Source of the DNA: an uncultured Eubacteriales bacterium
Lineage (GTDB): Bacteria; Bacillota; Clostridia; Oscillospirales; Acutalibacteraceae
Direction of reading: 5' to 3'
Assembly (NCBI GenBank): GCA_964615315.1
Contig: CAZTMZ010000003.1
Coordinates: 45,565-69,564, forward strand
Length of the DNA: 24,000 nucleotides
Shown here in pieces: positions 1-24,000 of the stretch. Both the position numbers and the translations under genes were made by a program. Each line of letters opens with the position of its first letter. Position 1 is the first letter of the stretch. A model generated the notes under the pieces. The model worked only from the letters and a program-made list of their open reading frames with translations, was not told the origin of the DNA and ran no database searches.

Positions 1-261
1 ACTCGTAATAAAAGAGTTGGTGATGTTTCTTGGTCTGAATTTCGTAGGATGTTAACCTATAAATCTCAATGGTATGGGAAACAATTATCTATTGTGGATA
101 GATATTTCCCGTCATCGCAGGCATGTCATGTGTGTGGATATAGAGATGGCAAGAAGTCTGAGGATATTAGAAGCTGGATTTGTCCTAATTGTAAAAGTAA
201 ATTAGATAGAGATGTAAATGCTGCTAAAAATATTCTGAACGAGGGATTAAAAATAATTTAG
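1..261 (+). CDS. tnpB: TnpB-family (IS200/IS605/IS607 OrfB) RNA-guided nuclease, C-terminal fragment; the 5' end lies outside the window
   Basis: Frame 1 is open from base 1 (TRNKRVGDVSWSEFRRMLTYKSQWYGKQL...). It contains a CxxC...CxxC zinc ribbon (CHVCG, CPNCK) followed by the RuvC-III motif DRDVNAAKNI. Stop TAG at 259-261. The layout matches the C-terminus of the full TnpB at 6370-7509. Confidence 0.9.
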   Translation, partial: TRNKRVGDVSWSEFRRMLTYKSQWYGKQLSIVDRYFPSSQACHVCGYRDGKKSEDIRSWICPNCKSKLDRDVNAAKNILNEGLKII

Positions 262-365
262 TAATATATATAAGAACCGTAGGAACTACGGGGATAGCCT
301 AGTGATACTGTATTCGTTGGAATACTTGACTAGGAACCCCGCGACTTTAGTCGTGGGAGGTTCAG
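262..365 (+). ncRNA. Structured right-end RNA: candidate TnpB omega-RNA scaffold and/or intron 3' segment
   Basis: Three clean hairpins. First: ccgtag(277-282)/ctacgg(286-291). Second, nested: cctagt(298-303)/actagg(329-334) enclosing gtattc(310-315)/gaatac(320-325). Third: cccgcgac(338-345)/gtcgtggg(350-357). The region ends ...ttcaG at 365, directly abutting coding sequence. The omega-RNA probably starts inside the tnpB 3' end; that 5' boundary is unknown. Confidence 0.55.
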
Positions 366-1553
366 GCTGGCACACTAAAGATTGGCGATGGTACAACAAC
401 ATATGAAAACTTACCTGCTATTCATGCGGGTGAAATTTCTTCTGCGGCCTCTCATTATGAGGGCGTTAAAGCAGAAGGCGAATCCGATATGGACGTCATC
501 GCTAGAGTTCTAGCAGATGATGAAGTTGGCGAAACTCGTTCGGATGATGTTTTTATTGTTAAAACTCTAATTGCAGAAGGCAAGTATTCTCATACTGCTT
601 ATGTTTACAATGGTTCTGCGTGGGTTGCTATGGACGGTAATTATGATGCTTCTAATGTTTATTTTGATAGTGATCTAATTGCTACGAGCGCAATCGGTAC
701 GGTTACGATTCCGTCTTCCGGTTCTGCGACTATTGAAGCGGCGGGTAAGAGTTTGAAGCAGGTTCTTTCTGCCATTCTTGCGCAAGAAAAGAATCCGACC
801 ACTACTCCGCCTGCTATTACTCTATCTGTTAGCGGTGGTTCTGGTGAGGTTGGTAGTTCTTATACTCTGCCTACTGCTACTCTAAAGCTTACCAGTGTTG
901 GTAGTTACACTTATGGCCCTGATACTGGTGTTACTGTTGAGGGCGGCAATGCTACTATTACTTGCGGCGATGAGTCTGCCACCAATAGTGGCGCTATGGT
1001 ATTAAATAGCACTCTGACACTAAAAGCCGTAGACGATAACTCTGTTTATTCTGATACAGCTAAGTCTTATACATTCAGTGCTTCTGCTGTTCATACTGAT
1101 GGTGCTATTCCTGTAACTAATATTGGCAATAAGTATGCTGCTGGTCAGATTAAGTCAGCTACGCTAACCAAGTCTGCGACCGCGACATTTACTGGCTATC
1201 GTTCTTTCTTCTATGGCATGGACGACACTACTGGTGAAATTGATAGTAAGCTAATTCGTGCCCTAACCAATGGCGGCAATTATAATGCATCCAAGACCTT
1301 CACCCTTAAAGCCGCAGATAAGGAAGGCGTAAAGCGTTTCATTGTTGCTTATCCTGCAAATAGTTCTCGTGGCGGCGTGAAAGAAGTTCTTTTGACGAGC
1401 ACAATGAATCTCGACATCACGGCAAACTACGTCCAACAAACCAATGTTGAAGTAGAGGGTCTAAATGGATATAACGCAATTCCATATAAAGTATTCGTTT
1501 ATTCTCCCGCTGAAATTGGTGCCGACGAAGTTCATAAAATTACTTTAGCGTAA
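366..1553 (+). CDS. Phage tail-fibre-like structural protein, downstream exon/segment (N-terminus upstream of the TnpB element and outside the window)
   Basis: The frame of ORF 489..1553 stays open back to 351. It reads AGTLKIGDGTTTYENLPAIHAG, the K-I-G-D-G...N-L-P tail-fibre N-terminal motif also present in the fibre starting at 20909 (FKIGDGITSVNNLPF). The track start at Met 489 is therefore an artefact. The exact junction (about 366) is inferred from the preceding G. Confidence 0.65.
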   Translation, partial: AGTLKIGDGTTTYENLPAIHAGEISSAASHYEGVKAEGESDMDVIARVLADDEVGETRSDDVFIVKTLIAEGKYSHTAYVYNGSAWVAMDGNYDASNVYFDSDLIATSAIGTVTIPSSGSATIEAAGKSLKQVLSAILAQEKNPTTTPPAITLSVSGGSGEVGSSYTLPTATLKLTSVGSYTYGPDTGVTVEGGNATITCGDESATNSGAMVLNSTLTLKAVDDNSVYSDTAKSYTFSASAVHTDGAIPVTNIGNKYAAGQIKSATLTKSATATFTGYRSFFYGMDDTTGEIDSKLIRALTNGGNYNASKTFTLKAADKEGVKRFIVAYPANSSRGGVKEVLLTSTMNLDITANYVQQTNVEVEGLNGYNAIPYKVFVYSPAEIGADEVHKITLA

Positions 1554-3367: not shown

Positions 3368-3422
3368 TATAGATAATACAATATGAATGGAAAAATATAT
3401 TTTTTAAAGGAGAAATGTAATT

Positions 3423-5177: not shown

Positions 5178-5199
5178 TATGATATAAATTAATAATTTA

Positions 5200-5230
5200 G
5201 GACCGCTCTGTTATCTCAATAGGGCGGTTC
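5200..5230 (+). terminator. Stem-loop after the fibre gene (weak candidate terminator)
   Basis: ggaccgc(5200-5206) pairs with gcggttc(5224-5230), including one G-U pair. No clear T-tract follows. Confidence 0.3.
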
Positions 5231-5254
5231 TACTACTACTTCTGGGGTGATAAT

Positions 5255-5887
5255 ATGAGCTGTTATGTAGAAAAAGTAATAAAAATTGCAAAGGCCGAAA
5301 TCGGCTATTTAGAAAAGGCAAGCAATAGTAATCTTGATAATAAGACTGCAAATGCAGGAGATAAAAATTACACTAAGTACGCTAGGGATTTGGACAGCAT
5401 TTCTGGTTTCTACAACGGAAAGAAACAAGGGTATCCTTGGTGTGATGTGTGGTTTGACTGGCTGTTTGTTCAAGCATACGGCGTTGAAAGTGCAAAAAGA
5501 TTACTTTGTCAGCCTAACAAGTCGCTAGGTGCTGGTTGTCAGTACTCTATGAATTACTATAAATCAAAAGGACAGCTCTATACTACTCCTAAAATTGGAG
5601 ACCAAATATTTTTTAAAAATAATTCTGATGAGATTGTTCACACGGGGTTTGTGTACGATGTGGATAAAACATATGTATATACAATCGAGGGCAATACGTC
5701 TTCTGCCAGTGGCGTAGTCGCTAACGGTGGCGGTGTATTTGCTAAAAAATATAAATTAACATATGAACGTATCGCGTGTTATGGTAGGCCAGCTTATGAC
5801 ACGGTTGAAAATAAAAATAATACAGCCGCCCATGTGGCAAATGGAGGGACTTGTACTGTGAATCTTAATGTGTTGAAAAAAGGAAAT
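5255..5887 (+). CDS. Endolysin exon 1: CHAP/NlpC-P60-type catalytic domain
   Basis: Catalytic Cys context GYPWCDVW, His context EIVHTGFVY, and TIEGNTS. The exon ends ...VLKKGN on U5887. The TAA at 5888-5890 is the first triplet of the intron. Confidence 0.85.
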
Positions 5888-6345
5888 TAACTAATGCAAT
5901 TTCTAAGCCTAGGTGTAACCGGGCGATTGCATTAGTATAGTTTCCGTATACAGAAATGTGTATGAAAAATTACTCACTGAATTGCTGGAATCCCCTAAAG
6001 CCTATGACGCTACAACGCGAGTCGTAAGACCGAACGTGAATGCAGTGAAAACAGAAAAAAGACATAGGATGATATATGGTTAAATCCTAAGTATCGTAAC
6101 AATGGGCAATCAGCAGCCAAGCTCCCAATTATTGACAACACAATATGAATGTGCTATAATAGTTGTGGAAAAGGTTCAACGACTATCCCGCAAGGGAGTA
6201 GGACACAAGCGATTGGTGTCCGAAGTGGTGAGCACCTAAGTCTCTTATGAGATATGGCGAAGATATAGTCTGTGCTCTACTGAAAGGTAGAGGCGCGAAA
6301 GCGCAGCGAGGCGTAGCGAGCCGATAGGAAAACAACCTTTTCTTA
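5888..6345 (+). ncRNA. Group I intron ribozyme core (IA2-like, with P7.1/P7.2)
   Basis: P1: ggaaaU(5882-5887) pairs with Gtttcc(5940-5945). P1 carries a perfect 10-bp extension hairpin, ctaatgcaat(5891-5900)/attgcattag(5926-5935). P2: gtatac(5946-5951)/gtgtat(5958-5963). Core elements: P aattgctggaa (5980-5990), Q caatcagcagc (6107-6117), R gttcaacgactat (6174-6186), S aagatatagtct (6260-6271). P7 is gactat/atagtc. GNRA-capped hairpins follow: ccc-gcaa-ggg and gcgc-gaaa-gcgc. From memory, the 3' core closely resembles the phage T4 td intron (AACGACTATCCC...GAGTAGG...GAGATATAGTCTGCTC). Confidence 0.85.
6132..6160 (+). promoter_or_regulatory. Perfect sigma-A/sigma-70 consensus promoter inside the intron (P6 region), facing tnpB
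   Basis: TTGACA (6132-6137), a 17-nt spacer (6138-6154), then TATAAT (6155-6160). A TG at 6152-6153 gives an extended -10 (TGcTATAAT). The homologous ORF-less intron has only a short hairpin at this position. Confidence 0.6.
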
Positions 6346-6369
6346 TCATGAATGAGAGGAGGTGCAACG

Positions 6370-7509
6370 ATGATTAAATCTTTTATAGTAAGGTTATACC
6401 TAACGAGAATACAAGAGGAGCTGGCGTGGAAGCACGTTGGCGCTTGCAGGTTCATTTGGAATTATATGCTTGACTACCAGCAGAGGTTATACGAATCAGA
6501 AAAGAAGCATCTACCTGCCTTTAGTATGATAAAACTTCTAACTCCGTTGAAGAATGACGGAGAGCATGGCTGGCTGTACGACGTATCGAACTCTTCCTTG
6601 CAAACAATCTGCCGCGATTTGGACGGAGCCTATCAGTGTTTCTTTAAGAAGGCTGCCGGTTTTCCGAAGTTCAAGTCGCGTAAGAAGAGTAAATCGAATT
6701 TTCCTGTATGCTGCAATAGATTCTACTTTGCAGACGAGAACTTCGTACAGATACAGAAGCTCGGCAAGGTTCGTTTCAAAACGGACTTTGAGCTTCCGAT
6801 TGGACGCGAGCATAAGTTCCTGAACCCCAGAATTTCCTACGTTAATGGGAAATGGCTACTGTCTTTTAGCATGGAGTGCGAGAACCAAGCGCCTGTATTG
6901 ACAGACAAGCCCATGGGTATAGATTTAGGTATTAAGGATTTAGCAGTGGCAGAATTTGACGGAAGGCCCATTGTCTTTCATAACATCAACAAGTCGAAGC
7001 GTATGCGGCAGCTCAAGCAGAGGCAGAAGCACTTGCAGAGAAGTATCTCCCGCAAGTACGAAGCGAATCGCAAGGGCAACCAGTATGTGAAGACGAAAAA
7101 CATTGAAAGGCAGGAGGAACAACTCCGCAAGCTCTATTCTCGAATCACGAACATCCGAACAAACTACATCCACCAAACCACACACGTTTTGGTTTCTCTC
7201 CTGCCTTGTCGAGTCGTCATGGAAGACTTAAACGTACAAAGCATGATGAAGAACCGACATCTGAGCAAGGCAATTCAGGAGCAGGGGTTCTATGAATTCA
7301 TCCGCCAAATGCAGTACAAGTGCGAGTGGAACGGTATCGAGTTCGTTCAGGTTTACAGGTTTTATCCGAGCAGCAAGACATGTTCCAAATGCGGCAACGT
7401 CAAGCGGAACCTGAAGCTGTCGGACAGAACGTATCATTGTGATTCGTGCGGAGCAGTAATTGACCGAGATTACAACGCTGCCATTAACCTTAGCAGATAC
7501 GTAGTCTAA
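6370..7509 (+). CDS. tnpB: TnpB RNA-guided DNA endonuclease (379 aa)
   Basis: RBS aggagg lies 7 nt before ATG 6370; the track start at 6352 is unlikely. The N-terminus MIKSFIVRLYLTRIQEE..CRFIWNYML is typical of TnpB. RuvC-I GIDLGIKD, RuvC-II VVMEDLNV, zinc ribbon CSKCG...CDSCG, and RuvC-III IDRDYNAAINL are all intact. Confidence 0.92.
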   Translation: MIKSFIVRLYLTRIQEELAWKHVGACRFIWNYMLDYQQRLYESEKKHLPAFSMIKLLTPLKNDGEHGWLYDVSNSSLQTICRDLDGAYQCFFKKAAGFPKFKSRKKSKSNFPVCCNRFYFADENFVQIQKLGKVRFKTDFELPIGREHKFLNPRISYVNGKWLLSFSMECENQAPVLTDKPMGIDLGIKDLAVAEFDGRPIVFHNINKSKRMRQLKQRQKHLQRSISRKYEANRKGNQYVKTKNIERQEEQLRKLYSRITNIRTNYIHQTTHVLVSLLPCRVVMEDLNVQSMMKNRHLSKAIQEQGFYEFIRQMQYKCEWNGIEFVQVYRFYPSSKTCSKCGNVKRNLKLSDRTYHCDSCGAVIDRDYNAAINLSRYVV

Positions 7510-7633
7510 TTGAAGAGACTATGGTCTTGAGGTGTTGTTGCACCTTTAAGCTGTGGAGAGCCATACAAACTTGAGTAGTTACGACGAAAGAGGGCTTGAT
7601 GAAGCAGTAAGTTTAGTTTGCTAAACACAACAG
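7510..7633 (+). ncRNA. IStron 3' structured region: candidate omega-RNA scaffold ending at the 3' splice site
   Basis: Hairpins: agac/gtct, aggtg/cacct and gtttag-tttg-ctaaac. They lie just before ...acaacaG7633. The position relative to the tnpB stop matches the TnpB omega-RNA paradigm. The scaffold probably starts inside the tnpB 3' end. Confidence 0.55.
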
Positions 7634-7819
7634 AAAAATAGTTCCGTAAAAGCATTGCAAATATTGTTAATTGGAAATGGCTATTCTTGTGGCTCTTATG
7701 GCGCAGACGGAGATTTCGGTACGGGAACGTATAATGCGGTTGTAAAATTTCAAAAAGCAAAAAAGATTGGCGCAGATGGAATTGTTGGAGCACAAACATG
7801 GGAGAAGCTATTAAAGTAA
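7634..7819 (+). CDS. Endolysin exon 2: PG_binding_1 cell-wall-binding domain
   Basis: Translation: KNSSVKALQILLIGNGYSCGSYGADGDFGTGTYNAVVKFQKAKKIGADGIVGAQTWEKLLK*. This fits the PG_binding_1 pattern (V..LQ.LL...GY.....DG.FG..T..AV..FQ......DG.VG..T...L). It has no start codon or RBS of its own. The frame is closed upstream at TAA 7622-7624. Confidence 0.85.
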   Translation, partial: KNSSVKALQILLIGNGYSCGSYGADGDFGTGTYNAVVKFQKAKKIGADGIVGAQTWEKLLK

Positions 7820-7832
7820 GTGGTGATGCTTT

Positions 7833-8195: not shown

Positions 8196-8209
8196 AAGGA
8201 GTGAAATGT

Positions 8210-8853: not shown

Positions 8854-10275
8854 ATGGGTAAGAAGTTAACTAAAGAAGAATTTATTAAAAGGGTTTATGA
8901 AAAAAATGAGCATGTAAGAAATGGAGAACTTGAGATTCGTGGAGAGTTCGTTGGGACAAAGGAACCAATAGAATGTTTTTGTACAATCCACCATGTTTTA
9001 TGGAACCCTAGACCGGACGATTTGTGGAAAGGAATTGGGTGTAGACAATGTGGGAGTGTAAAAACAGCGGACAAAAGGCGTGTAGATGCGGACACAATTA
9101 ATAGACGATTAGAACAAATAAATAATGGCGTTAAAATGATTGGTAAATGCTTCGGCGTTAGAGCGGAAACTGAGTTTCAATGTAGTTTGAATCATACATG
9201 GAGAGATCGACCTATTGATATTTTGAACGGCGTAGGATGCCCATATTGTAGCGGACATCGTGTTTGGGTTGGATTTAATGATTTATGGACAACACGTCCT
9301 GATGTTGCGAAGTTGTTATTGAATTCTAACGATGGCTATAAATATACATACGGTTCTAATAAAAAATTAGAATTTATTTGTCCAATTTGTGGGTCTATAA
9401 TAATAAAGTCCGCAAAAGAAGTCTGTCAAAATGGATTAGTTTGTCAACTTTGCTCTGATGGTATTTCATATCCAAATAAGCTTGGCAGGTTGTTATTAAC
9501 ACAGCTCAATGTAGAGAATATAAGATATGAGTGGAGCCCGGATTGGATCCAATCTTATTCTTACGATAATTATTTTGAATATTGTGGAAAAGCATATATT
9601 TTAGAGTTTGACGGTGGACTTGGGCATGGTAAAAAGAAATATAAATCAAATGAGCGCGATGTTATTGGCAAAGAAAGAGATATTTATAAAGATCGTTTGG
9701 CAGCAGATCATAATATAAAAGTTATAAGAGTCGATTGCGATTACACTGGAAAATGTAATGATCGTTTTATGTATATAAAAAATAATATTTTACAAAGTGA
9801 ATTGTGTAGCATTTTTGATTTGTCTTGTGTTGATTGGGAATATTGTGATTGTAATGCGCAAAAAACATTGATAAAACAAGTTGCGGATTTATACAATCAA
9901 GGTTTAAGCGTATCAGAAATACAAAAGATTGTAGGTTATTATATTAATACTATCCGTAAATGGTTAACTACGGCATCTAAATATAATTTATGTAATTATA
10001 ATAGAAAAGAGTCTAAAAGAAGAACAACTGATTCTATATACCGTTATATTAATCAATATTCTACAAATGGAGAATTTGTGAGAACATATAAATGTGTAGC
10101 TGAAGCCAGTGAAATTACTGGAGTTGATGATTCTTCGATTTATGGATGTTGTAAACATTATTCTGGGCATAAAACCGCAGGTGGATTTTTATGGTTTTAT
10201 GCTACAGATCTATATCAACCAGATAAATCAAAGATTATTGAATTAGCAATACAAAATGAATGTAAGGAGGTGTAA
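8854..10275 (+). CDS. Free-standing protein resembling a homing endonuclease: Zn-ribbon repeats + Vsr/PD-(D/E)XK-like core + HTH/NUMOD1-like DNA-binding C-terminus
   Basis: RBS ggagg is present. There are three Cys/His ribbon modules (CTIHH..CRQCG; CSLNH..CPYCSG; CPICG..CQLCS). The core motif YILEFDGGLGHG...ERD..KD is typical of Vsr/DUF559-type nucleases. An HTH follows (GLSVSEIQKIVGYYINTIRKWL). The C-terminus reads INQYSTNGEFVRTYKCVAEASEITGVDDSSIYGCCKH..KTAGGFLWFY, typical of phage homing-endonuclease DNA-binding repeats. The gene looks visibly AT-rich. Confidence 0.55.
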   Translation: MGKKLTKEEFIKRVYEKNEHVRNGELEIRGEFVGTKEPIECFCTIHHVLWNPRPDDLWKGIGCRQCGSVKTADKRRVDADTINRRLEQINNGVKMIGKCFGVRAETEFQCSLNHTWRDRPIDILNGVGCPYCSGHRVWVGFNDLWTTRPDVAKLLLNSNDGYKYTYGSNKKLEFICPICGSIIIKSAKEVCQNGLVCQLCSDGISYPNKLGRLLLTQLNVENIRYEWSPDWIQSYSYDNYFEYCGKAYILEFDGGLGHGKKKYKSNERDVIGKERDIYKDRLAADHNIKVIRVDCDYTGKCNDRFMYIKNNILQSELCSIFDLSCVDWEYCDCNAQKTLIKQVADLYNQGLSVSEIQKIVGYYINTIRKWLTTASKYNLCNYNRKESKRRTTDSIYRYINQYSTNGEFVRTYKCVAEASEITGVDDSSIYGCCKHYSGHKTAGGFLWFYATDLYQPDKSKIIELAIQNECKEV

Positions 10276-12250: not shown

Positions 12251-12620
12251 CGAAATTTGGATACCGTATTGAGAAATCAGTATGAAAAAATACTCGTTTA
12301 ATTGCTGGAACACCCTAAAGACAAATAAACTACAACGTAAAGATGAAATATGCTTAAGCGTGAATGTTATGAAAATAGAAAAAAATATTTGTATGAGAGC
12401 GAGGTTAAATCCCCTGCTCTTTTTTAATGGGCAATCAGCAGCGAAGCCGTGAATAACGGAACGTTCAACGACTATTCTGAAAGGAAGTAGGCTGTAAGCG
12501 ATTGACAGTCGAAATGGCGAGGACCAGAAATGGTTAAGATATAGTCTATACTCAATGGAAACATTGAGAAGGAGAAATCCTTAGCACAGGAGTAGCGTCC
12601 TATGTTTAATACAATAGATG
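12251..12620 (+). ncRNA. ORF-less group I intron (370 nt), homologous to the IStron ribozyme
   Basis: P1: gtatUc(12246-12251)/ggatac(12259-12264), with U12250-G12260 at the splice site. P2: gtattg(12266-12271)/cagtat(12278-12283). Core elements: P aattgctggaa (12300-12310), Q caatcagcagc (12432-12442), R gttcaacgactat (12463-12475), S aagatatagtc (12536-12546). GAAA-capped P9 hairpins: ctcaatg-gaaa-cattgag and aagga-gaaa-tcctt. The terminal G12620 is the only G that both lies after the in-frame TAG (12593-12595) and restores the frame. Confidence 0.85.
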
Positions 12621-15600
12621 TTCGTAAAAACTGGAAAATTAAAACTTCAGAATATCATACATTAGATTTAGATCAAGTTCCTACAAAAATATTTTGCTGG
12701 AAGGCTGACTATGCTGAGGCGACTGGTAGCCACAACACGAGTACGGCTAATTATGCTCATATATTATATGGAGATGCTAAAACTCCGCCGCAGGAAGCCG
12801 ATTCTCGTGTAAGAACTACTGTTTATGGAAGACCAAGTGTAATTTTTCATAAAGCAGATAGTAGTTCGGACCCCGTATTTTACGGAAAGGCAAATGCAAA
12901 TATAGATAAAGGAGCACTTGAATGCTTTGGTTTTACTGAAGATTATTCAGATGCCCAGTGTGTAGAATTTTGCAATAACGTTTCAGAGGCATGTTTATTC
13001 CACAAAGAGATATCAGATGATTGGTCTGATGACTTTGAATTTCGTCAGCCCGATGGATACACGGATATCTCTGACTTCAAAATTGTACACGATTGGACAG
13101 TTAGCACATGGCAAGATGGGGCAACTGGAACTGCATTGAATGGATCGTATACAGGCATTGATGGTACTGTTTATACTAATGATACTGCGGCATATAGATT
13201 AGCAAAATTCAAGAAAGAATTTACAGATTATTATAATTTGGATTTTTGTTTAGTTTATTATGTGTTGACGTTTGTGCTAATGTGCGTAGACCAACGTGCG
13301 AAGAATATGTTTTTAACAACTTGGGACAAGGTTCATTGGGAGCCGTGGTTTTATGATAATGATACAATTTTAGGCATTAATAACGAAGGTAGATTGGTCT
13401 TCAGTCCTTTTTTGGAGGATGACGATCAGCTTGATGGAGCAAATGTTTTTAATGGAGCCACAAGTGCCCTTTGGGTGAATTTTAGAGAATCTTTCCCTAA
13501 TGAGATTCAGGCTTTGTATGCTTCTTGGCGTAGCGAAGGATTGTTAAGTTATGATCAGATAATTGAATATTTTATAACTCGCCAAACTGACAAATGGTCT
13601 ATTTCAGTTTACAGTGAAGATATAGATTTTAAGTATGTCTCTTTGCTGAGAGATGATGATGATGGTACTTACTTATATCAAGTAAGAGGTACTGGTGAAG
13701 AACATTTAAGATACTTTACTAAAGCTAGACTTAATTACTTAGACTCTAAGTGGTGCTGCGGTGATTATCCAAGTGATTACGTTTCGTTGCGTATTTATAC
13801 TCCAATGGATGAAAATAATAATCCACTAACTAATTTGCCAGTAGCTGCCAATCCAGATATTACGATAACACCTTATGAAAACACCTATGCAGGCGTTCAA
13901 TTTGGCGCAGGTAGTAACATTAATCAATATAAGGCGTATCAAAATGTTCCAATTACGCTTAAGTGGACAATGAATGGTTCTCCTAATGACCTTGAGACTT
14001 CGGTATTCCCGGCTTCTCAGATTAGTTCTTTGGGTGATTTGTCTCCTTTGTATTGCGGCACGATTAATGTTAGCAAAGCAGAGAAGTTAACTGAATTAAT
14101 TGTTGGCAATCAAACAAAAGGTTATTCCAATAACAATCTAACTGAATTGGCAGTTGGTGCCAATAACCTATTACAAAAAGTAGATATTTGTAACTGTCCT
14201 AATCTAGTTAAACCATTAGCGCTTTCTAACTGTCCAAATATTCAAGAAATTTATGCAATAGGTTCTGGTATTACTGGTCTTGAGTTGCCAACCTCTGGTT
14301 ATCTAAAGAAGGTGTATTTGCCAAATACTTTAACCAACCTAACAGTAACCAACCAACAATATATTGAAGAATTCGTTCTCGAAGGTTATGACAATTTGAC
14401 TACTCTTCGTATTGAAGATACTGTTAATATTCCTGTCGAAGACATAATGCTTAATGCGCCGAATTTGAATCGTATTCGTCTTATTGACGTTCAATGGGAA
14501 GCAGAGTCTGAGGCAGCGCTTGTTCAAACAATTGAAAAATTTAAGTCTTGTTTGGGTTTGGATGCTAACGGCAATAATACTGAGAACGCCATTGTTACCG
14601 GTAAAGTGCATGTCGCAGAGAAAGTCTCCAATGAAGTTTTCGGTGATGTTTATAATAGTTTCCCAGATCTTGTTATAGATGACGGCAGTGAAGAAATCTA
14701 TATTCTTAACTACAAAGACCGTGATGGTAAAATATTATATTCTACTAGAGTCGCAGAAGGGGCGAATGCGATAGATCCGATTGCACAGGGTTATATTGAG
14801 ACCCCAGACCCAATTATAACAGACACATATAGATATGAATTCGTCGCTTGGAGTACATTGCCAACCAACATTCAGAGGCATTATGTAATTATTGCGCAAT
14901 ACCACACTAAGTTTGCTATTAAATTTTATAATGAAGAAACATTATATTATACTCAGTGGTCCGTACAAGGCGACCCAGCTATCGACCCTGTTGTATCCGG
15001 CGCAATCACAGCTCCAACCAAGTCTGGCACGTCCGATATAAGCTATAAGTTCTCTGGTTGGGACAACCTGCCAACGAACGTTCAATCCACAGTTAACGTA
15101 TATGCTCAATACGATACCTATTGGGCTGTAAGATTCTGGAACGACAGTGTATTGTATTTAACAGAGTGGATCATCGAAGGTGGCAAACCCGTTAATCCTA
15201 GCACTTATTCCGAGGATTATACCAATCCAACTCGTACAAGTACGGCGCAATATGACTATCACTTCTCTAGTTGGGATGGTGACTTTGATACCGAAGTAAC
15301 ATCAACAAGAGAATTCTACGCCGTATATTCCAGTACAATTCGTAGATATAATGTCTACTTCTACAATGATAACGAACTGCTATACACCGTAGAAAATGTC
15401 CAATATGGTAGCAGTGCGTCTTATAGTGGTAGCACACCAACAAAACTCGGCGTTGAAGATCCAGACGAATACGTATTTAAGGGCTGGCTGCCTGCGCCTG
15501 AAAATATCACTGGCGAAACTAAATGTTATGCGCTGTATAAATTTACTGGTTACCTATTTGGTAAGTTAGGCAAGACTGATGATGACGATCAAGGCTATGG

Positions 15601-16321
15601 AACAGTTGATAGTCCAAACTGGGATGCGATCAATGCCTATTGGACAACTATTGCTGCTGATGTCTCATCCTACCAAAATGGTATTTTGGCAGAAGATGAT
15701 TTTACTGCAAAATATCAAATTGGTGGCCGAATGATTGTTCCAATTAACCTTTCGGATGGTACATCTACTATGGCAGATGTTGAAATTATTGCACACAACC
15801 ATGATAATCTAGCGGACGGCTCTGGTAAGGCGGCTTTAACATTCTTCTGTAAAGATCTTCCGCAGGTTCAGCGTGCTATGAATGAGTCTACTGTACTTAC
15901 TGGTTATAAAGATAGTATAATGCGTACTTTTGTCAATGAAGAATTGTTTGGCGTTCTTCCCAATGAACTAACGTTGGTAATCAAACCCGTAAAGAAAATT
16001 TCTGATGGTGGTGCGCAAAATCAGACACTAGTAACTACGACGGATTATTGTTGGATTGCGTCATATGATGAAGTTGGTTTTACTTCTGGTGGCTCAAATA
16101 TTTCTGGGCAGGGAGAGTTGTATGATGAAATATTTTCTAACAATAACAGTCGTAAAAAGTATATAACTGATAGCACCGATACTGGTGGATGGTGGCTGCG
16201 CACGTCAGTTCGTTCTACAAATTTAAGCAGCACTATGTTTTACAGAGTTCAGAAGTCGGGTGCGGCATATACGGATATTCAGACGAATCAATTTTATGTT
16301 GCATTTGGTTTTTGTATCTAA
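12621..16321 (+). CDS. Giant tail/receptor-binding protein, exon 2: CotH-like domain, LRR region, four Listeria/Bacteroides-type repeats, C-terminal WWLR domain
   Basis: The splice junction reads GTSSQY-F-RKNWKIK, which fits a CotH-type motif. A CotH-like core is present (DQRAKNMFLTTWDKVHWEPWFYDNDTILG). LRRs span about 14040-14480 (LTELIVGN..LTELAVGAN..CPNLVKPLALSNCPNIQEIY). Repeats span 14699-15538. The C-terminus contains GGWWLRTS. The spliced product is 1890 aa. Confidence 0.8.
14699..15538 (+). repeat. Four tandem coding repeats of about 70 aa (Flg_new / Listeria-Bacteroides repeat-like)
   Basis: The units start YILNYKD, FAIKFYN, WAVRFWN and YNVYFYN. Each ends in Y.F.(A/G/S)W....V......YA.Y (EFVAWSTLP..IIAQY; YKFSGWDNLP..VYAQY; YHFSSWDGDF..FYAVY; YVFKGWLPAP..CYALY). 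Confidence 0.7.
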
Positions 16322-16359
16322 TATGGGTTTATCTCTACCTAAAAAATAAGAGGTATTAA

Positions 16360-16390
16360 GTAGAGCTGGGCAACCGGCTCTACTTTATTA
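16360..16390 (+). terminator. Rho-independent terminator
   Basis: A 10-bp stem gtagagctgg(16360-16369)/ccggctctac(16374-16383) with a GCAA tetraloop, followed by tttatta. Confidence 0.75.
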
Positions 16391-16418
16391 TATTGAAATC
16401 TAAGGGAGGTGAATCTAT

Positions 16419-17021
16419 ATGACTGGTTTTGAAGAATTTTTAACTCTATTTGGAGGCATTACGGTTTCTCAAATTGTCGTTTTTGTGTTTGCGGTTATCT
16501 TTTTATTCTCTGTCTATAAAGAGATTAAAAAGTACGTCAACGTAAAAATTAAAGAACAGCAAACAAAAGCAGATGAAGAAAAGAATAACAAAAAGAAACT
16601 TGAAGAAGCGTGGGTCGCAACACAAAAGTATCCAGAGTATCGTAAAAAAAGTTTAGAAATACAGGAACTTCTTGAGGGCGAAATCCAAGAAGTAAAAAAC
16701 ACAGAAGAGACGGTAACAGAAGAATTAAAGAAACTGTCTTTACGTCTTGAAAAGATGGAGGAAGACACGAAACGCCGTGAGCGTAATCGTCTCAGAGATC
16801 TGCTGCTGAATCATTATCGTCATTATACAAACAAAGAACTAAATCCGTCACAATCATGGACGAGCATGGAAGCGGAGACATTCTGGGCGTTATTTAGCGA
16901 TTATGAGGATGCAGGTGGAGATGGTTACATGCACACTACGGTTCAGCCAGAAATGGAACGTTTACTAGTTGTGAACGTAGGTGAACTACCACAGACCGTA
17001 ACGGCCTGTGGCTTCCATTAA
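16419..17021 (+). CDS. Hypothetical membrane-anchored coiled-coil protein; its 3' end runs into the IS left end
   Basis: RBS gggagg is present. N-terminal TM segment ITVSQIVVFVFAVIFLFSV, followed by a charged coiled-coil. The last roughly 18 codons (from about 16966) and the stop codon lie inside the IS200/IS605 left-end hairpin structure. Confidence 0.6.
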   Translation: MTGFEEFLTLFGGITVSQIVVFVFAVIFLFSVYKEIKKYVNVKIKEQQTKADEEKNNKKKLEEAWVATQKYPEYRKKSLEIQELLEGEIQEVKNTEETVTEELKKLSLRLEKMEEDTKRRERNRLRDLLLNHYRHYTNKELNPSQSWTSMEAETFWALFSDYEDAGGDGYMHTTVQPEMERLLVVNVGELPQTVTACGFH

Positions 17022-17031
17022 ATAGTTCACC
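16980..17031 (+). repeat. IS left-end (LE) subterminal hairpin
   Basis: Outer 9-bp stem: ggtgaacta(16980-16988)/tagttcacc(17023-17031). Inner hairpin: ccacag(16989-16994)...taa...ctgtgg(17006-17011), with an inner GC stem ccg/cgg. It has the same architecture and the same CCACA/TGTGG core as the RE hairpin. Confidence 0.7.
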
Positions 17032-17268
17032 AGACTAAGTATTCAGAAACGAATACTACGATGATTACATTATGACACCCTTGGTTGACGCAACAGACCA
17101 CTGCTCTGTCGTATATCTTTAAGTTGGGTTGGAATAAGCAAAGCCCTGTGAGATATACATGTAAGTGTATTCATCATTGTCGAGTTGAGGACGGAACAAT
17201 TGTATGGTAACAGTACAATGTAGTACGCATTACCTGCCATTAGGCAGAGTATTTATAAGGAGAGGCTT
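17032..17268 (+). ncRNA. Candidate IscB omega-RNA scaffold (may extend 5' through the LE to about 16966)
   Basis: A long non-coding leader lies immediately 5' of iscB, which is the canonical omega-RNA location. Hairpins: agtattc-agaaac-gaatact (17038-17057), attgta-tggtaacag-tacaat, and ctgcc-atta-ggcag just before the RBS. No ORF is present. Confidence 0.5.
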
Positions 17269-18543
17269 ATGGTTTATGTAATTTCACAAGATAACAAACC
17301 ACTAATGCCTTGTAGTAATGCGATAGCAAGATTGTTATTAAAACAAGATAAGGCAAAAGTTAAGAAACGCAAGCCATTTACAATTAAATTGACTTATGAA
17401 ACAACAAATTATACACAAGAACTAACTTTAGGTGTTGATACTGGAAGTGGAACAATTGGCACTGCCGTTAGTAAAGATAATGGAGACATTGTTTACATGT
17501 CGGAGGTTATTGTCAGAAATGATATTACTGATAAGATGACACAAAGAGCAAAGTATCGTAGAAACAGACGAAATCGTAAAACTCGATATAGAAAGGCAAG
17601 ATGGTTAAATCGTGCCAATTCTATTAAAAATGACAGATTCAGTCCTACAATGCAAAGTAAACTTCATAGTCATGTAAAGGAAATAGAGTATATTAAATCC
17701 ATTCTTCCGATTACAAAAATGGTATTTGAAACTGGTCAGTTTGACACTCACCTTATGAAGAATCCATGTCTTGCAAATCCTAATGTAAGACATTGGGGAT
17801 ATCAAAAAGGTACAAATTATGGATTTGAAAACACAAAAACGATGGTTCTTAATCGAGACAATTATACTTGTCAACATTGCAAAGGCAAACACAAAGACAG
17901 TAAATTAGAAGTTCATCATATCGTATTTCGTAGTCAAGGTGGTTCAGATGAAGAAAGCAATTTAATCACACTTTGTCATACTTGTCATAAGAATTTACAT
18001 GACAGAAAAATTAAATTAAATCTTAAAGGCAAAACGAAAGGCACACTTAAATATGCCACACAAATGAATTCTATTAGAAAACAACTTTTCAGATTATATC
18101 CTGATGCGATTGAAACATTTGGATATGTAACAAAAACAAATCGTTTACAGTTAGGTGTAGATAAAGAACACTATTATGATGCTTGTACTATTGCGGCACA
18201 AGGGAATAGCTTTACTGTGAAAAGCAATCTCTATAAGAAAAAGTCTATTCCTGATGGTGATTTTCAGAAAACAAAAGGCATTCGTTCCGAGCAACCTATT
18301 ACAACTGGAAAGATTTGTGGATTCAGAAAGTTTGATAAGGTTCGCTACTTTGGAAATGATTATTTTATTAAAGGAAGAATGTCAATTGGATATGCAATTC
18401 TTATGGATATAGATGGTAACAAAATTGATTTTTCAGCAATGCCTAAAGGTTACAAAACACCAAAGATGGTAAATCTAAAAAGATTGGAGGCTCGGTCAAC
18501 ATGGATGATTACAACCGTGGTGGTCACTCCAAATACAGCATGA
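17269..18543 (+). CDS. iscB: IscB RNA-guided nuclease (424 aa; Cas9-ancestor type, RuvC with inserted HNH)
   Basis: PLMP motif at residues 11-14 (QDNKPLMPCS). RuvC-I LGVDTGSGTIG (D57). Arg-rich bridge helix KYRRNRRNRKTRYRKARW. RuvC-II MVFETGQFD. HNH CQHCKGK..LEVHHIVFRSQGGSDEESNLITLCHTCHKNLH. RuvC-III EHYYDACTIA. A C-terminal domain of about 100 aa follows. Confidence 0.92.
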   Translation: MVYVISQDNKPLMPCSNAIARLLLKQDKAKVKKRKPFTIKLTYETTNYTQELTLGVDTGSGTIGTAVSKDNGDIVYMSEVIVRNDITDKMTQRAKYRRNRRNRKTRYRKARWLNRANSIKNDRFSPTMQSKLHSHVKEIEYIKSILPITKMVFETGQFDTHLMKNPCLANPNVRHWGYQKGTNYGFENTKTMVLNRDNYTCQHCKGKHKDSKLEVHHIVFRSQGGSDEESNLITLCHTCHKNLHDRKIKLNLKGKTKGTLKYATQMNSIRKQLFRLYPDAIETFGYVTKTNRLQLGVDKEHYYDACTIAAQGNSFTVKSNLYKKKSIPDGDFQKTKGIRSEQPITTGKICGFRKFDKVRYFGNDYFIKGRMSIGYAILMDIDGNKIDFSAMPKGYKTPKMVNLKRLEARSTWMITTVVVTPNTA

Positions 18544-18905
18544 AAGTGCATCTGATATTTGTAACCAAATATCGCAAGAAAATATTCAAATCAGATAAGC
18601 GAGCAGATGATGTCAAACAGTCTTTGTATGACACAGTTAAGAAATATGGCTACAAAATCATACAAATGGAAACTAACAAAGACCATGTACATATATTACT
18701 TGAGTATAGTCCAAAGGTGTCTGTTGCAGACATTGTAAAACAACTCAAGCAGTATAGTACATACCAGATGTGGAAATATCATGAAGAATATCTATCCAAA
18801 CAGTATTGGAAACACAAAATACTTTGGTTTGACGGATATTTTGCTTGCAGTATAGGGCAAGTTTCTCAAGAAATTATTGAGAAGTGTATTCAAAACCAAG
18901 GTTAA
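18501..18905 (+). CDS. tnpA: IS200/IS605 Y1 (HUH) transposase TnpA, with Cys at the catalytic Tyr position
   Basis: RBS ggagg lies 10 nt before the ATG. The gene overlaps the iscB 3' end by 43 nt. Motifs: VHLIFVTKYRKK, and HUH in NKDHVHILLEY. The C-terminal helix ...SQEIIEKCIQNQG aligns to IS608 TnpA ...LNVVKQYIENQ, where Y127 is the nucleophile. Here the codon is TGT. Confidence 0.9.
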   Translation: MDDYNRGGHSKYSMKVHLIFVTKYRKKIFKSDKRADDVKQSLYDTVKKYGYKIIQMETNKDHVHILLEYSPKVSVADIVKQLKQYSTYQMWKYHEEYLSKQYWKHKILWFDGYFACSIGQVSQEIIEKCIQNQG

Positions 18906-18915
18906 AAATAACGAA

Positions 18916-18957
18916 CGCCGTGTATCCACACGCCTAAAGGCATGTGGTTTTACGGCG
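18916..18957 (+). repeat. IS right-end (RE) subterminal hairpin
   Basis: Outer stem: cgccgt(18916-18921)/acggcg(18952-18957). Inner hairpin: ccaca(18926-18930)...taaa...tgtgg(18943-18947), with an inner GC stem gcc/ggc. Confidence 0.7.
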
Positions 18958-19021
18958 GATAACTTATAAATAATCTACAATGTAAAACATGTTTGATTAG
19001 TAATGGAGGTTGAAAAAAGAT

Positions 19022-20908: not shown

Positions 20909-23900
20909 ATGGCTAACAGAACTATTAATGGGCGAATTGTTAACAAACACGATACTGAAGCGAATTGGTCAAAATCCAGTTTTGTACCTTTAAAGGGAGA
21001 GATTGTGGTTTTCGACATAGATAATACGTATAGTTATGAACGATTCAAAATAGGCGATGGCATAACATCTGTTAATAATCTGCCATTTGTTGGTGCAGAT
21101 AAAGTAGACAAAGTAAGTGGCAAGCAGTTGTCTACTAACGACTATACGACGGCAGAAAAGAACAAGCTTGCTGGAATTGCCGAAGGGGCAAATAAGACTG
21201 TTGTTGATAGCGCCCTGTCTTCTTCTAGCACTAATCCAGTACAGAATAAAGTTGTTAGTGCGGCTATTTCAAATTTAAACACCTTGGTTGGGGACACTTC
21301 AGTTAGTGAACAAATTACAACGGCAGTCTCTACCAAGGCGGATGCGTCCCATATGCACGATAATAGATATTATACTGAAACTGAGATCGATAGCAAGTTG
21401 AGTGGTAAGTCTGATACTTCTCATACTCATAGCTCTTATGTCAATCAAAATGCTTTTTCAAATATTAAAGTTGGGAATACAACTGTAGCTGCCGACACGG
21501 CTACGGACACAGTAACTTTGGTAGCTGGGAATAACGTGACGCTTACTCCAGATGCTACAAACGATCAAATCACTATTGCGGCGACCGACACAGTGTATAC
21601 GCATCCATCTTCTGGTGTGACTGCTGGTACATATAAGAGTGTAACTGTTAATGCACAAGGACATGTGACTGCAGGTTCTAATCCAACTACTTTGAGTGGT
21701 TATGGTATTACAGATGCTGCTGCAAAGTCACATAGCCATAATAATGCAACTACATCTGCTGCAGGATTCATGTCTGCTACTGACAAGTCTACTTTGGATA
21801 ATCTTTCTGGTTTGGTGGGTGATACTTCCGTATCCGCTCAGATTGCCGAAGCTATTGCAGATAAGGTGGATAAGGTGAGTGGTAAACAGTTGTCTACGAA
21901 TGATTATACCACTACTGAAAAAAATAAACTTGCAAATATTGCATCTGGTGCAGAAGTGAACCAGAATGCATTTTCAAATATTGCGGTTGGAACCACGACT
22001 ATTGCGGCTGATACAAAAACAGATACGTTAACAATCGCGGCTGGAAACAATGTAACTATTACACCAGACGCAACCAATGACAAGATTACTATAGCGGCTA
22101 CGGATACGGTATATACCCATCCAACATATACTTCTAAGAGCTCTGGGCTATACAAAGTAACCGTTGATGGCACTGGACACGTAAGTGGTGCAACTGCGGT
22201 TGCCAAATCTGATATTACAGCACTTGGTATTCCTGCGCAGGATACTACTTATAGCGCTGCGACAACTAGCACGGCTGGCCTTATGAGTGCATCTGATAAA
22301 TCCAAGCTAGATGGTATCGCTACTGGCGCAAATAAAACAACCGTAGATAGTTCGTTAAGTTCTACTTCTACAAATCCAGTTCAAAACAAGGTAGTAAATG
22401 CTGCAATCTCTAATTTAAACACTCTTGTCGGCGATACGGCGGTGTCTGAACAGATAGCTGACGCTGTAGATGATTGTATTACTGGTTTATCTGTCTCTGG
22501 TAAGGTGGTTACTTATACTAAAGGAGATGGCTCTACAGGAACTATTACTACACAAGATACAAATACCACATATTCCGCTGCAACAACTTCTGCGGCGGGT
22601 CTAATGTCGGCATCCGATAAATCTAAACTTGATGGCATTACAGCAAGTGCAGATGCTGTATCTTTCTCACGTTCATTAACAAGTGGTACAAAAGTTGGCA
22701 CTATTACTATTAATGGCACTGGAACTGATTTGTATGCTCCAACAAATACTGATACACATTATACAAGTAAGAATGTTGTTGGCTCTTCTACTGCAACTAG
22801 CAACACAACTTCTGCCTTGACAAATGGTAATGTCTATTTAAATAGTGTTGAAAATGGCGTTGTAACATCTGCGCATAAAATTAGTGGTTCAGGTGCAACT
22901 ACTGTTACTACTGACACAAGTGGCAATATTGTTGTTAGCTCTAACAACACGACTTATTCTGCTGCTACTACAAGCGCCGCAGGTCTAATGTCAGCGTCTG
23001 ATAAGACGACTTTAAGCAATCTGAGTGCTTTAGTTGGAGATACTGCGGTTAGCACTCAGATCTCTAATGCAACGTCTGGTTCGATGAGTGGTAATGCGGC
23101 CACTGCTACAAAGGTAAATAACAGTCTTGCTATTAAACTAAACAGCGGCACCACGGAAGGAACAAACTTATTTACATTCAACGGTTCTGCTGCAAAAACT
23201 ATAAATATTACTCCTTCTGCTATTGGCGCTGCGGCTTCTTCTCACGGAACACACGTATCTTATGGTACTTCTGCTGCTGCGCTTGGCACGTCTTCTGCTG
23301 GCTCGGCCTCTACCGTTTCTCGCAGCGACCACGTTCACGCACTTCCTGCTTTAACAAGTTGTACTGGAACTCTTAGTGTAGCAAAGGGCGGAACTGGTTC
23401 TACAACCGCAAGTGAAGCATTGACTAATTTGGGCGCAGTGGCAAAAAGTGGAGATACGATGACTGGTTCTTTAAGGGTGGGTACAAGTTCTACCACATCA
23501 GAGATGGATGTTCATGCTATAGCTGCTTCTGGCTCTATTTATCTTTATGCTGGTGGCTCAAGCAGTAGTAATAGAGGTATTTATACTTACAGCTCTAGTG
23601 GAACAGAGGCGGCCGTCATTACAATTAATCCATCAAACGTTATGACTTTCCATGGTACTGCCGCAAGTGCCAATTCTGTAGCATGGACGAATGTTTCAGG
23701 AAGGCCCTCCGCTCTTGCTAATCCAAACGCTCTAACCATTTCTCTAAATGGCACTTCCCAAGGAGCATACGATGGTAGCTCTGCTAAATCTATTAATATC
23801 ACTCCCTCCTCAATTGGTGCCGCCGCTAGTTCTCACACCCATAGTTATTTACCTTTAAGCGGTGGAACACTTTCTGGAAGTTTACTAATTGGCAATTCAG

Positions 23901-24000
23901 GTAGCTCCGCAACTACCGTAACTGACGCGGGCTTAGAAATTCGTGACTTACGCAATTGCACGATTATTCCCTCTACATTCAATCGGGTAATGACCCCTTA
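20909..24000 (+). CDS. Large tail-fibre protein, 3'-truncated by the window end (more than 1030 aa visible)
   Basis: It is absent from the track because there is no stop in the window. I read the frame through to 24000 and found no stop. RBS aaaggaga lies 8 nt upstream. The N-terminus reads DTEANWSKSSFVPLKGEIVVFD...FKIGDGITSVNNLPF. Repeated motifs include KQLSTNDYTT.EKNKL (x2), AGLMSASDKSKLDGI (x3 variants) and STNPVQNKVV.AAISNLNTLVGDT (x2), plus LSVAKGGTGSTTASEALTNLGAV. Confidence 0.85.
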   Translation, partial: MANRTINGRIVNKHDTEANWSKSSFVPLKGEIVVFDIDNTYSYERFKIGDGITSVNNLPFVGADKVDKVSGKQLSTNDYTTAEKNKLAGIAEGANKTVVDSALSSSSTNPVQNKVVSAAISNLNTLVGDTSVSEQITTAVSTKADASHMHDNRYYTETEIDSKLSGKSDTSHTHSSYVNQNAFSNIKVGNTTVAADTATDTVTLVAGNNVTLTPDATNDQITIAATDTVYTHPSSGVTAGTYKSVTVNAQGHVTAGSNPTTLSGYGITDAAAKSHSHNNATTSAAGFMSATDKSTLDNLSGLVGDTSVSAQIAEAIADKVDKVSGKQLSTNDYTTTEKNKLANIASGAEVNQNAFSNIAVGTTTIAADTKTDTLTIAAGNNVTITPDATNDKITIAATDTVYTHPTYTSKSSGLYKVTVDGTGHVSGATAVAKSDITALGIPAQDTTYSAATTSTAGLMSASDKSKLDGIATGANKTTVDSSLSSTSTNPVQNKVVNAAISNLNTLVGDTAVSEQIADAVDDCITGLSVSGKVVTYTKGDGSTGTITTQDTNTTYSAATTSAAGLMSASDKSKLDGITASADAVSFSRSLTSGTKVGTITINGTGTDLYAPTNTDTHYTSKNVVGSSTATSNTTSALTNGNVYLNSVENGVVTSAHKISGSGATTVTTDTSGNIVVSSNNTTYSAATTSAAGLMSASDKTTLSNLSALVGDTAVSTQISNATSGSMSGNAATATKVNNSLAIKLNSGTTEGTNLFTFNGSAAKTINITPSAIGAAASSHGTHVSYGTSAAALGTSSAGSASTVSRSDHVHALPALTSCTGTLSVAKGGTGSTTASEALTNLGAVAKSGDTMTGSLRVGTSSTTSEMDVHAIAASGSIYLYAGGSSSSNRGIYTYSSSGTEAAVITINPSNVMTFHGTAASANSVAWTNVSGRPSALANPNALTISLNGTSQGAYDGSSAKSINITPSSIGAAASSHTHSYLPLSGGTLSGSLLIGNSGSSATTVTDAGLEIRDLRNCTIIPSTFNRVMTP

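Follow-up and report, generated by a model that had tools for sequence, protein, structure and literature searches.

In this study, we analysed a 24,000-nucleotide (nt) stretch of contig CAZTMZ010000003.1 (hereafter the window) and identified five selfish genetic elements among its phage genes: two TnpB-encoding elements (a complete IStron and a CdISt1-like element that is probably also an IStron), a group I intron without an open reading frame (ORF), an insertion sequence encoding IscB and TnpA, and a free-standing gene resembling homing endonucleases. All of the long, biologically sensible ORFs (at least 100 amino acids (aa)) lie on the plus strand over the whole window, to which all coordinates below refer, and the GC skew is positive over most of it and approximately zero by the last 2 kb. 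The genes outside the elements are phage late genes encoding tail-fibre-like proteins, an endolysin, small holin-like proteins and a very large tail protein; the window is probably the late (tail-fibre, lysis and tail) region of an approximately 108-kb phage of gut Firmicutes, with Lachnospiraceae as the probable host. At the curated thresholds of Rfam, four RNAs were detected, all on the plus strand, and Pfam detected four mobile-element proteins (two TnpB proteins, one of them partial, one IscB and one Y1 transposase). Each of the five elements is on the plus strand and comes from an already known family. Three of them interrupt genes, namely those of the tail fibre, the endolysin and the large tail protein, and the IscB element lies at the 3' end of a gene. 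The initial annotation had counted four elements in its heading and five in its text; the latter number was found, and the element identities that it gave were borne out by Rfam, Pfam, PHROG and alignments with solved structures. The common orientation, which it had offered as evidence of a drive between phages, is uninformative because no gene of the window lies on the opposite strand and an intron has to be in the sense direction.

The endolysin gene is divided by a complete IStron of 1,746 nt (5888..7633), which runs from UAA to ACAG. Exon 1 (5255..5887, 211 codons) encodes the CHAP-type catalytic part, and P0121, a protein of the same 90% protein cluster, matches the endolysin families of PHROG. 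Exon 2 (7634..7819) encodes the peptidoglycan-binding domain, and its translation (KNSSVKALQILL...TWEKLLK, followed by the stop) is in frame with exon 1. The core of a group I ribozyme was detected at 5940..6292 over the full length of the Rfam model (RF00028, 84 bits against a threshold of 50, E=2.5e-20). It is followed by tnpB2 (6370..7509), which encodes an IS607-type RNA-guided nuclease of 379 aa with the Pfam domains HTH_OrfB_IS605, OrfB_IS605 and Cas12f1-like_TNB. The guide RNA of TnpB2 has RAGATH-18 as its conserved core (RF03064, 7550..7610, 61.1 bits, threshold 44.9). This motif begins 40 nt past the stop codon of tnpB2, outside the coding sequence, and the scaffold extends to 7633. 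RAGATH-18 has been described as the guide-RNA core of IS607 TnpB proteins (PMC11061315). No serine-recombinase TnpA is present in the element.

Subsequently, the splice sites of this element were examined. Exon 1 ends with AAA GGA AAU, and its GGAAAU pairs with GUUUCC at 5940-5945 to form P1, giving a U5887.G5940 wobble. The P1 assignment of Rfam (5944-5965) was rejected, as the GGAAAU/GUUUCC pairing with the U.G wobble fits the frame and the empty site; the 5' splice site lies upstream of the Rfam P1 because the stop codon at 5888 forces it there. The 3' splice site was placed after G7633 from frame and homology. The predicted spliced lysin has 272 aa, and P0121 also has 272 aa with an identical junction (...LKKGN/KNSSVKALQ...). 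The contig encoding P0121 (L033 in our numbering of loci, from run SRR25400495) has 94% identity with the window in the sequence immediately upstream of the site; it aligns to 5890, resumes at 7634 and lacks exactly 5888-7633, with GGAAAT/AAAAATAG as its empty site. Furthermore, the uninterrupted architecture of CHAP and PG_binding_1 (Pfam) was found in thousands of lysin homologues. The element therefore has a 5' ribozyme, a downstream tnpB with an intact RuvC triad, and ends that coincide with splice sites restoring the frame, as in IStrons, and we infer that its transcript splices itself. The first three bases (5888-5890) are an in-frame TAA, so that unspliced mRNA would yield a lysin of 211 aa with the CHAP catalytic domain only and not a frameshifted product.

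The best match of TnpB2 among solved structures was 8iaz (E=4e-66), and the two align at the motifs GIDLG, MEDLN and DRDYN, in which the D/E/D residues of RuvC lie, and at the cysteines of the zinc finger. This entry is named only 'Transposase'; from the shared D-to-A mutation and the length, it is apparently the ISFba1 TnpB of the RAGATH-18 paper. The predicted guide of TnpB2 is 7634-7653, the first bases of lysin exon 2, and the empty site reconstructed from the window reads GGAAAT followed by AAAAATAGTTCC.... When the positions at which ISFba1 TnpB contacts DNA (K80, K83, N121 and N122, which read the G-rich target-adjacent motif AGGAG or GAGGG) were compared, TnpB2 was found to have S and Q at those of K80 and K83, and the flank in the window is GGAAAT; the relatives at GGCT sites also have Q, G or C at these positions.

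In IMG/VR, 42 viral loci with TnpB2 relatives (41-72% identical) were found. Sixteen of them were scanned, and a group I intron lies directly upstream in 12 and RAGATH-18 downstream in 14; the relatives of TnpB2 are a phage-borne IStron family without TnpA. These relatives end with ACGG, and the four mapped sites all follow GGCT. They interrupt tape-measure, terminase, portal and exonuclease genes, and there is accordingly no special link of this family to tail and lysis genes; the concentration in such genes that the initial annotation pointed out is a feature of the window. When metagenome contigs were searched with the first part of the lysin IStron, as a 28-mer, no other copy was found. 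In two pairs of loci with backbones 91-97% identical (L035/L039 and L037/L040), the same TnpA-less IStron was observed at sites separated by 1.2 and 3.1 kb, in each case following (T/C)GGCT, so that each member of a pair provides the empty site of the other. The element in these pairs has no transposase and yet occupies different sites.

The first element lies at the left edge of the window, which holds the 3' end of tnpB1 (1..261, the last 86 codons; Pfam Cas12f1-like_TNB, E=3e-22), the gene running past the edge. The CxxC..CxxC zinc-finger cysteines and the RuvC-III motif DRDVNAAKNI are legible in the sequence. The right end of the element and its guide-RNA scaffold (262..365, group A type, ending with ...GGAGGTTCAG) are conserved in approximately 37 viral loci, where divergence starts immediately past GGTTCAG. 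In the window, the junction reads ...GGAGGTTCAG/GCTGGC; the TCAG 3' terminus characteristic of group A is thus followed directly by tail-fibre exon 2 (366..1553), which resumes at AGTLKIGDG like the uninterrupted homologues. Approximately ten such homologues (...GEPCYDVN/AGTLKIGDG) fix the junction. The element is inserted approximately 38 codons into the tail-fibre gene, and exon 1 and the 5' part of the element are beyond the window. The first bases of exon 2 (366-385) are the predicted guide of TnpB1. The homologous empty tail-fibre sites have TTAAT right before the junction. A sub-threshold match to the Enterococcus small RNA 70 (Rfam Ref70, 33.9 bits, E=0.014) was observed at 271-387, and the right end of the relative in L088 (4278-4404) gave the same match; Ref70 may itself be a TnpB guide RNA.

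The TnpB1 family comprises 429 related stretches in viral contigs, the best of them 74-87% identical in aa sequence. Every copy examined starts right after TTGAT and ends with TCAG. The long forms carry a 5' segment of approximately 550 nt that is homologous to the ribozyme of one relative, L096 (Rfam, 65.9 bits). Among the loci inspected, the ribozyme-bearing long forms lie inside ORFs (L079, L084 and L088) and the short forms between genes (L078 and L080). Two carriers of this family, L087 and L090, are near-identical over 8.2 kb except for a short dip at approximately 300-450 and approximately 1.3 kb directly 3' of the element. The same was observed when L087 was compared with both L090 and L089: over approximately 4351-5700, these near-identical carriers differ almost only in the approximately 1.3 kb 3' of the right end. 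L080 and L091 are otherwise unalignable, and the island common to them consists of the element and its upstream flank only.

The IscB element was delimited in the same manner. It is an insertion sequence of the IS200/IS605 type of 1,985 nt (16982..18966, with an ambiguity of 1 nt owing to a shared T). HEARO, the IscB guide-RNA scaffold (RF02033, 16981..17197, 99.5 bits against a threshold of 83, E=1.2e-19), is followed by iscB (17269..18543, 424 aa; Pfam RRXRR E=4e-54 and HNH E=1e-11) and by tnpA (18501..18905, 134 aa; Pfam Y1_Tnp E=4e-32), which encodes a Y1 (HUH) transposase and overlaps the end of iscB. IscB aligns with OgeuIscB (7utn and 7xht; E=5e-41), and the RuvC D/E/D positions and the HNH motif are conserved. 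The element is inserted in a small gene (16419..16981) whose product has a hydrophobic, possibly membrane-spanning N-terminal stretch, and whose last two codons and stop are displaced. The relatives of this protein have 189 aa and end with VVNEDK or VVNEDR; in the window, ...VVNVG is followed by 12 codons read from HEARO, and removal of the element rebuilds a protein of 189 aa ending with VVNVGK. L034 has the empty site ...GAGGA/TAAATAATC, and the window reads ...GTAGG, then 16982-18966, then TAAATAATC. HEARO 5' of iscB, the RuvC and HNH motifs, the Y1 TnpA and the precise insertion beside a conserved motif are together those of IS200/IS605 IscB elements.

The predicted IscB guide region (16962-16981) comprises up to 20 nt upstream of the element, where the small gene has its 3' end. 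On the other side, the 3' target-adjacent motif is predicted in TAAATAA (18967..18973), the displaced last codon and stop of that gene; the reconstructed empty site is ...GTGAACGTAGG followed by TAAATA. This TAAATA fits NWRRNA, which we take to be the motif of OgeuIscB. Copies in bacterial contigs are 86% identical in nt sequence and have the same ends, and the three distinct right flanks that were seen each begin with TAAA(A/T). The 90%-identity cluster of tnpA has 12 members, some of them on bacterial contigs, and the closest genomic relatives of IscB (79-88% in aa sequence) were found in Lachnospira, Anaerostipes hadrus, Oscillospiraceae and similar gut genome bins. Three of the 86%-identical IscB/TnpA copies (L158 at 6477-8470, L159 and L160) lie among bacterial genes encoding AgrB, a LytTR regulator and a spore protein; L158 and L159 have a left flank in common and differ in their right flanks.

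The large tail protein gene is interrupted by a group I intron of 367 nt without an ORF (12251..12617; Rfam 74.6 bits, match at 12239-12568). The 5' splice site is after U12250 and the 3' splice site after G12617. Exon 1 (10279..12250) corresponds to positions 487-1149 of the profile phrog_14959 and is collinear with the ORF of L003; exon 2 (12618..16321) corresponds to positions 1428-1994 in a scan of 12620-16321 and has DUF6273 (Pfam) at its C-terminal end. Both exons thus match successive parts of one PHROG profile, and the spliced ORF has 1,891 aa. The uninterrupted homologue of L003 (1,907 aa) reads GTSSAGYVRKNWKIK where the spliced product of the window reads GTSSQYYVRKNWKIK, with equal length across the junction. 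Splice sites guessed at first, after U12249 and after G12595, were rejected, as the L003 homologue requires 12250 and 12617. The intron has the conserved core, a U12250.G12260 pair and the terminal G12617 of group I introns, and its removal restores the frame. It is assumed to be of subtype IA2 from its resemblance to the introns of IStrons. At this site, L004 carries an intron with 87.7% identity to that of the window, and compensatory changes between the two were seen in P1 (G-C and G.U in place of U-A and A-U) and in P9; L003, L077 and others are intron-less here. The 3' tail of the intron (12589-12604) contains GGAG and then an ATG (12602) in frame with exon 2, which gives the ORF of 1,239 aa reported by gene callers; this start is probably fortuitous because it is not conserved in the L004 intron. 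A different insertion, with an ORF of 251 aa and no Rfam intron, was observed in the homologous tail gene of a more distant relative, L009 (10922-11674). The product of this ORF has DUF2726, which is presumably PD-(D/E)xK nuclease-like, and the large tail gene may be a recurrent target for mobile elements.

The fifth element is a free-standing gene for a protein of 473 aa (8854..10275) that matches several families of PHROG, whose annotations are HNH endonuclease (E=7e-29), plain endonuclease and homing endonuclease (to E=1e-6). Its Pfam matches to NUMOD1, HTH and zinc-ribbon domains are all sub-threshold, and no Pfam nuclease domain was found above threshold in the protein. It is 89% identical in aa sequence to its homologue in L077, and the products of the neighbouring lysin and holin-like genes are 42-60% identical. 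When 8616-10261 of the window was compared with 9764-11411 of L077, the gene and a small upstream ORF were approximately 90% identical and the downstream gene differed; this segment looks like a mobile endonuclease island at a gene-order breakpoint. With tblastn, no homologue of the endonuclease was found in the L003 and L004 stretches, and weaker homologues were found in some other related loci. The gene is accordingly better conserved than its flanks and patchy among related genomes, and it shows the clearest sign in the window of horizontal spread from phage to phage.

We also examined related phages for the elements. The absence of empty sites would have told against the drive that the initial annotation proposed; precise empty sites were found in L033 and L034 (83-94% nt identity), and presence or absence at identical sites, as it had expected, is polymorphic in L033, L034, L003, L077 and L011-L016. 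Thirty homologous stretches taken from related viral contigs contain no TnpB, IscB or TnpA; they contain one group I intron and one other insertion. By megablast against GenBank phages, only matches of 50-62 nt to the intron core were obtained, in Enterocloster phages, and no exact 40-mer of the window was hit in the viral, genome and metagenome collections that were searched. An extra gene of 198 aa (4597-5193), with a weak match to Mtd_N, separates the second tail-fibre-like gene of L033 from its lysin gene; the window does not have it.

From these results, we consider it probable that five elements of known families independently colonised the late region of this phage, that they persist because their cost to the phage is small, and that their nucleases serve the element first. 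We build this reading on the identities and boundaries of the elements, the restored frames, the empty sites of relatives, the preservation of the catalytic motifs and the finding that the families are widely distributed. The ribozymes would splice the elements from the late mRNAs exactly at the element boundaries and so restore the frame, and the cost of the IscB element would be small, only the last two codons of the small gene being replaced. Each IStron would yield a guide RNA from its 3' end, with the first 16-20 nt of exon 2 as the guide (366-385 and 7634-7653), and HEARO would carry a guide from at most 20 nt upstream of the IscB element (16962-16981). The nucleases could then cut any copy of the site that lacks the element, beside the motif at the other flank, in sibling genomes of the replicating pool or in a co-infecting relative, and repair by recombination with a copy bearing the element would restore or spread it. 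Since many phage genomes replicate and recombine together, the mechanism should work among siblings and, in principle, against co-infecting relatives; the element would benefit first, and the exclusion of rival phages would be a side effect. Homing by TnpB and IscB has been established (PMC10055086), and experiments on IStrons have demonstrated their splicing, the activity of their TnpB and a conflict of splicing with the production of guide RNA (PMC10690162 and PMC13521648).

Several points weigh against this reading. Splicing in vivo, nuclease activity, guide use and homing are ascribed to the elements of the window by analogy with those studied systems. Since the window does not include the 5' part of the first element, its ribozyme is unseen; among the TnpB1 relatives that were tested, Rfam detected a ribozyme in only one (L096), and the others are linked to it by homology only. 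The lysin IStron is atypical of its family, as it follows GGAAAT and ends with ACAG, and TnpB2 may therefore not recognise this site; furthermore, no close relative of this IStron at 90% identity or more was found among approximately 15 billion proteins. In the large tail gene, exon 2 could be translated separately from unspliced RNA. The initial annotation had stated that the three interruptions are tolerated only because they splice. Two of the three have exact splice junctions that restore conserved frames; for the lysin, the statement goes too far, as exon 1 with the in-frame TAA would still give the CHAP-only enzyme.

The elements might instead be passive passengers that arrived by chance transposition from the host or from other phages, are near-neutral, and carry nucleases that are useless in the phage and may be decaying. 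The IscB element is indeed common to bacterial contigs, both IStrons are without a transposase, the related phage stretches are free of TnpB, IscB and TnpA, and the ends, the target site and the isolation of the lysin IStron would suit such a passenger. However, the three nuclease frames are intact as far as they are visible, with conserved catalytic residues, the guide-RNA motifs score above the curated thresholds, and the TnpB families are abundant in viral contigs with full-length ORFs. We therefore regard passive carriage as rather unlikely.

The initial annotation had proposed that the nucleases of these OMEGA systems (short for obligate mobile element-guided activity) act mainly as a phage-versus-phage gene drive, which would convert or exclude co-infecting or superinfecting relatives. 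Intron-encoded and free-standing homing endonucleases do so in T4-like and PhiPA3-like phages. Several observations are in line with such a drive. The empty sites in close relatives are precise; the guides are necessarily phage sequence, as the annotation had argued and as the established mechanism of OMEGA systems requires; and no catalytic motif is disrupted. In the TnpB1 family, pairs of loci with the element at the same site (L080/L091, L087/L089, L087/L090 and L094/L106) are 97-100% identical in the element and 76-91% in the downstream flank, and the mosaic boundaries at the right end of the element are those expected of recombination-mediated spread between diverged phages. The IStrons lack TnpA, so that a function in restoring an excised copy has little to act on and homing is left as a plausible role of TnpB (PMC13565253).

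On the other hand, neither the lysin IStron nor the IscB element was found at its site in a second phage, contrary to the spread by homing that had been supposed for them. The nearest empty alleles mismatch the guides: that of L033 differs from the TnpB2 guide at positions 9 and 18, both synonymous, and the 20 nt beside the IscB element differ at 7 positions. For a related IS607 TnpB, a single mismatch anywhere in positions 1-13 abolished activity (PMC11061315). Copies of the IscB element at 86% identity are present in bacterial contigs, and its arrival by ordinary transposition from a bacterial chromosome explains it better. Both TnpB families occur at many different sites, which points to transposition; reverse cases, with flanks more alike than the element, were also found (L099/L103 and L108/L112). 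No co-conversion gradient was observed around the intron shared with L004, the intron being 88% identical and the adjacent exon bins 62-73%. The same-site pattern could, moreover, be produced by general phage mosaicism. Taken together, the family-level comparisons seem mostly to favour transposition into many sites and exchange with bacterial chromosomes, and we judge a role mainly as a drive between phages to be improbable.

A more specific form of the idea is that TnpA-less IStrons and IscB elements in late genes spread between related phages that infect the same cell when the empty allele is cut by the RNA-guided nuclease ('non-restorative homing'), creating the mosaic boundaries at their right ends and biasing inheritance. 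They would then be an RNA-guided counterpart of T4-type homing endonucleases, widespread in large gut phages. We offer this only tentatively and hold it to be doubtful. The drive hypothesis as such is plausible; it is neither demonstrated by the window nor conceptually new. In sum, the observation made in the initial annotation is confirmed and its interpretation is partly supported.

That the window is an assembly artefact or chimera joining bacterial insertion sequences to phage DNA, as the close bacterial relatives of the IscB element might suggest, is hardly credible, since Logan contigs of run SRR10277277 match the window across the lysin IStron and the intron and both IscB junctions are those of a real empty site, base for base. 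These contigs are 100% identical to 269-1625 and 1597-17219, although they may be a second assembly of the reads behind the NCBI record rather than independent data; they cross the lysin IStron and the intron, enter the first element at its right end and extend over 238 nt of the IscB element. The junctions that they cross are not assembly artefacts, because of this identity. The breaks between the contigs were considered as a sign of repeated elements, and this was rejected: they are ordinary unitig breaks with an overlap of 29 nt inside an ordinary gene and are therefore uninformative on copy number.

As for novelty, the definition of IStrons dates from 2000, a survey of 2014 already listed cases from C. 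botulinum phages (PMC4227781), and TnpB has been noted to be frequent in phages (PMC12607003). A 2026 review names 'transposon non-restorative homing', with co-infecting phages or plasmids as the recipients, among its theoretical categories (PMC13565253). The novelty claimed in the initial annotation is thus reduced by these reports of phage IStrons and of the homing idea. Our literature search found no experimental study of OMEGA-based drive between phages. Three smaller findings are new. The two described groups of IStrons are apparently both present in one phage, whereas the 2014 survey had no species with both (PMC4227781). There is an IS607-type IStron lineage whose target sites end with T and whose splice site has the canonical U.G pair. 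For this group of phages, so many elements in one stretch are unusual. As it stands, the window shows one region of a phage densely colonised by elements of known types. If OMEGA drive between co-infecting phages is true, it would be a natural, reprogrammable gene drive in viruses, would help to explain the commonness of TnpB in phage genomes and would add a cause of phage mosaicism. The window provides a test bed for this, with three OMEGA elements of defined target sites and natural empty alleles in the Logan runs SRR25400495 and SRR25400536.

Finally, we compared the elements with known systems. The endonuclease-like gene resembles the free-standing homing endonucleases of intronless homing (T4 SegF, SegB and MobE; PMC10448857) in its modular zinc-ribbon, HTH and NUMOD1-like parts, its patchy distribution and its position at a gene-order breakpoint; unlike the T4-type enzymes, its catalytic domain is not assigned by Pfam. 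The tail intron is similar to the phage group I introns studied in the competition of introns and endonucleases in PhiPA3 (PMC11620839), with a group I core in a conserved late gene and one site common to diverged phages. It is without an ORF, unlike the PhiPA3 system, and its own mobility would therefore need a nuclease in trans. The IscB element has the organisation of the known ISC elements (PMC4810608), HEARO and OgeuIscB, including the upstream HEARO, the RuvC/HNH nuclease, the Y1 TnpA, the lack of target duplication and the conserved motif that follows. It differs from them in its phage location, where a small late gene has its stop codon, and in the length of its IscB (424 aa, against 496 aa in OgeuIscB).

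The first element is like the group A IStrons represented by CdISt1 of Clostridioides difficile (PMC4227781 and PMC10690162) in its TCAG end, in the insertion of its family right after TTGAT, one of the three group A target sequences (TTGAT, ATTAT and TTTAT), and in the family's long forms, whose ribozyme-homologous segment of approximately 550 nt lies 5' of an IS605-type tnpB. As in many CdISt1 copies, TnpA is missing, and the element boundary is the exon junction. In contrast to CdISt1, the copy in the window is in a phage tail-fibre gene, its site reads TTAAT and not TTGAT in the uninterrupted homologues, and its family also has ribozyme-less short forms between genes. The lysin IStron shares with the group B IStrons and IS607 TnpB elements (BcISt1, CboIStron and ISFba1; PMC4227781, PMC10690162 and PMC11061315) the upstream group I ribozyme and a RAGATH-18 just downstream of tnpB, outside the coding sequence, and IStrons of the group B type were reported earlier in the C. 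botulinum phages c-st and D-1873 (PMC4227781). Despite its group B-type nuclease and guide RNA, it does not have the group B signature of insertion after GG, an end with CGG and G as the last exon base. In place of that G, the copy in the window has the canonical U.G pair at its 5' splice site, and the stretch from RAGATH-18 to the guide is 23 nt, compared with 64 nt in ISFba1.

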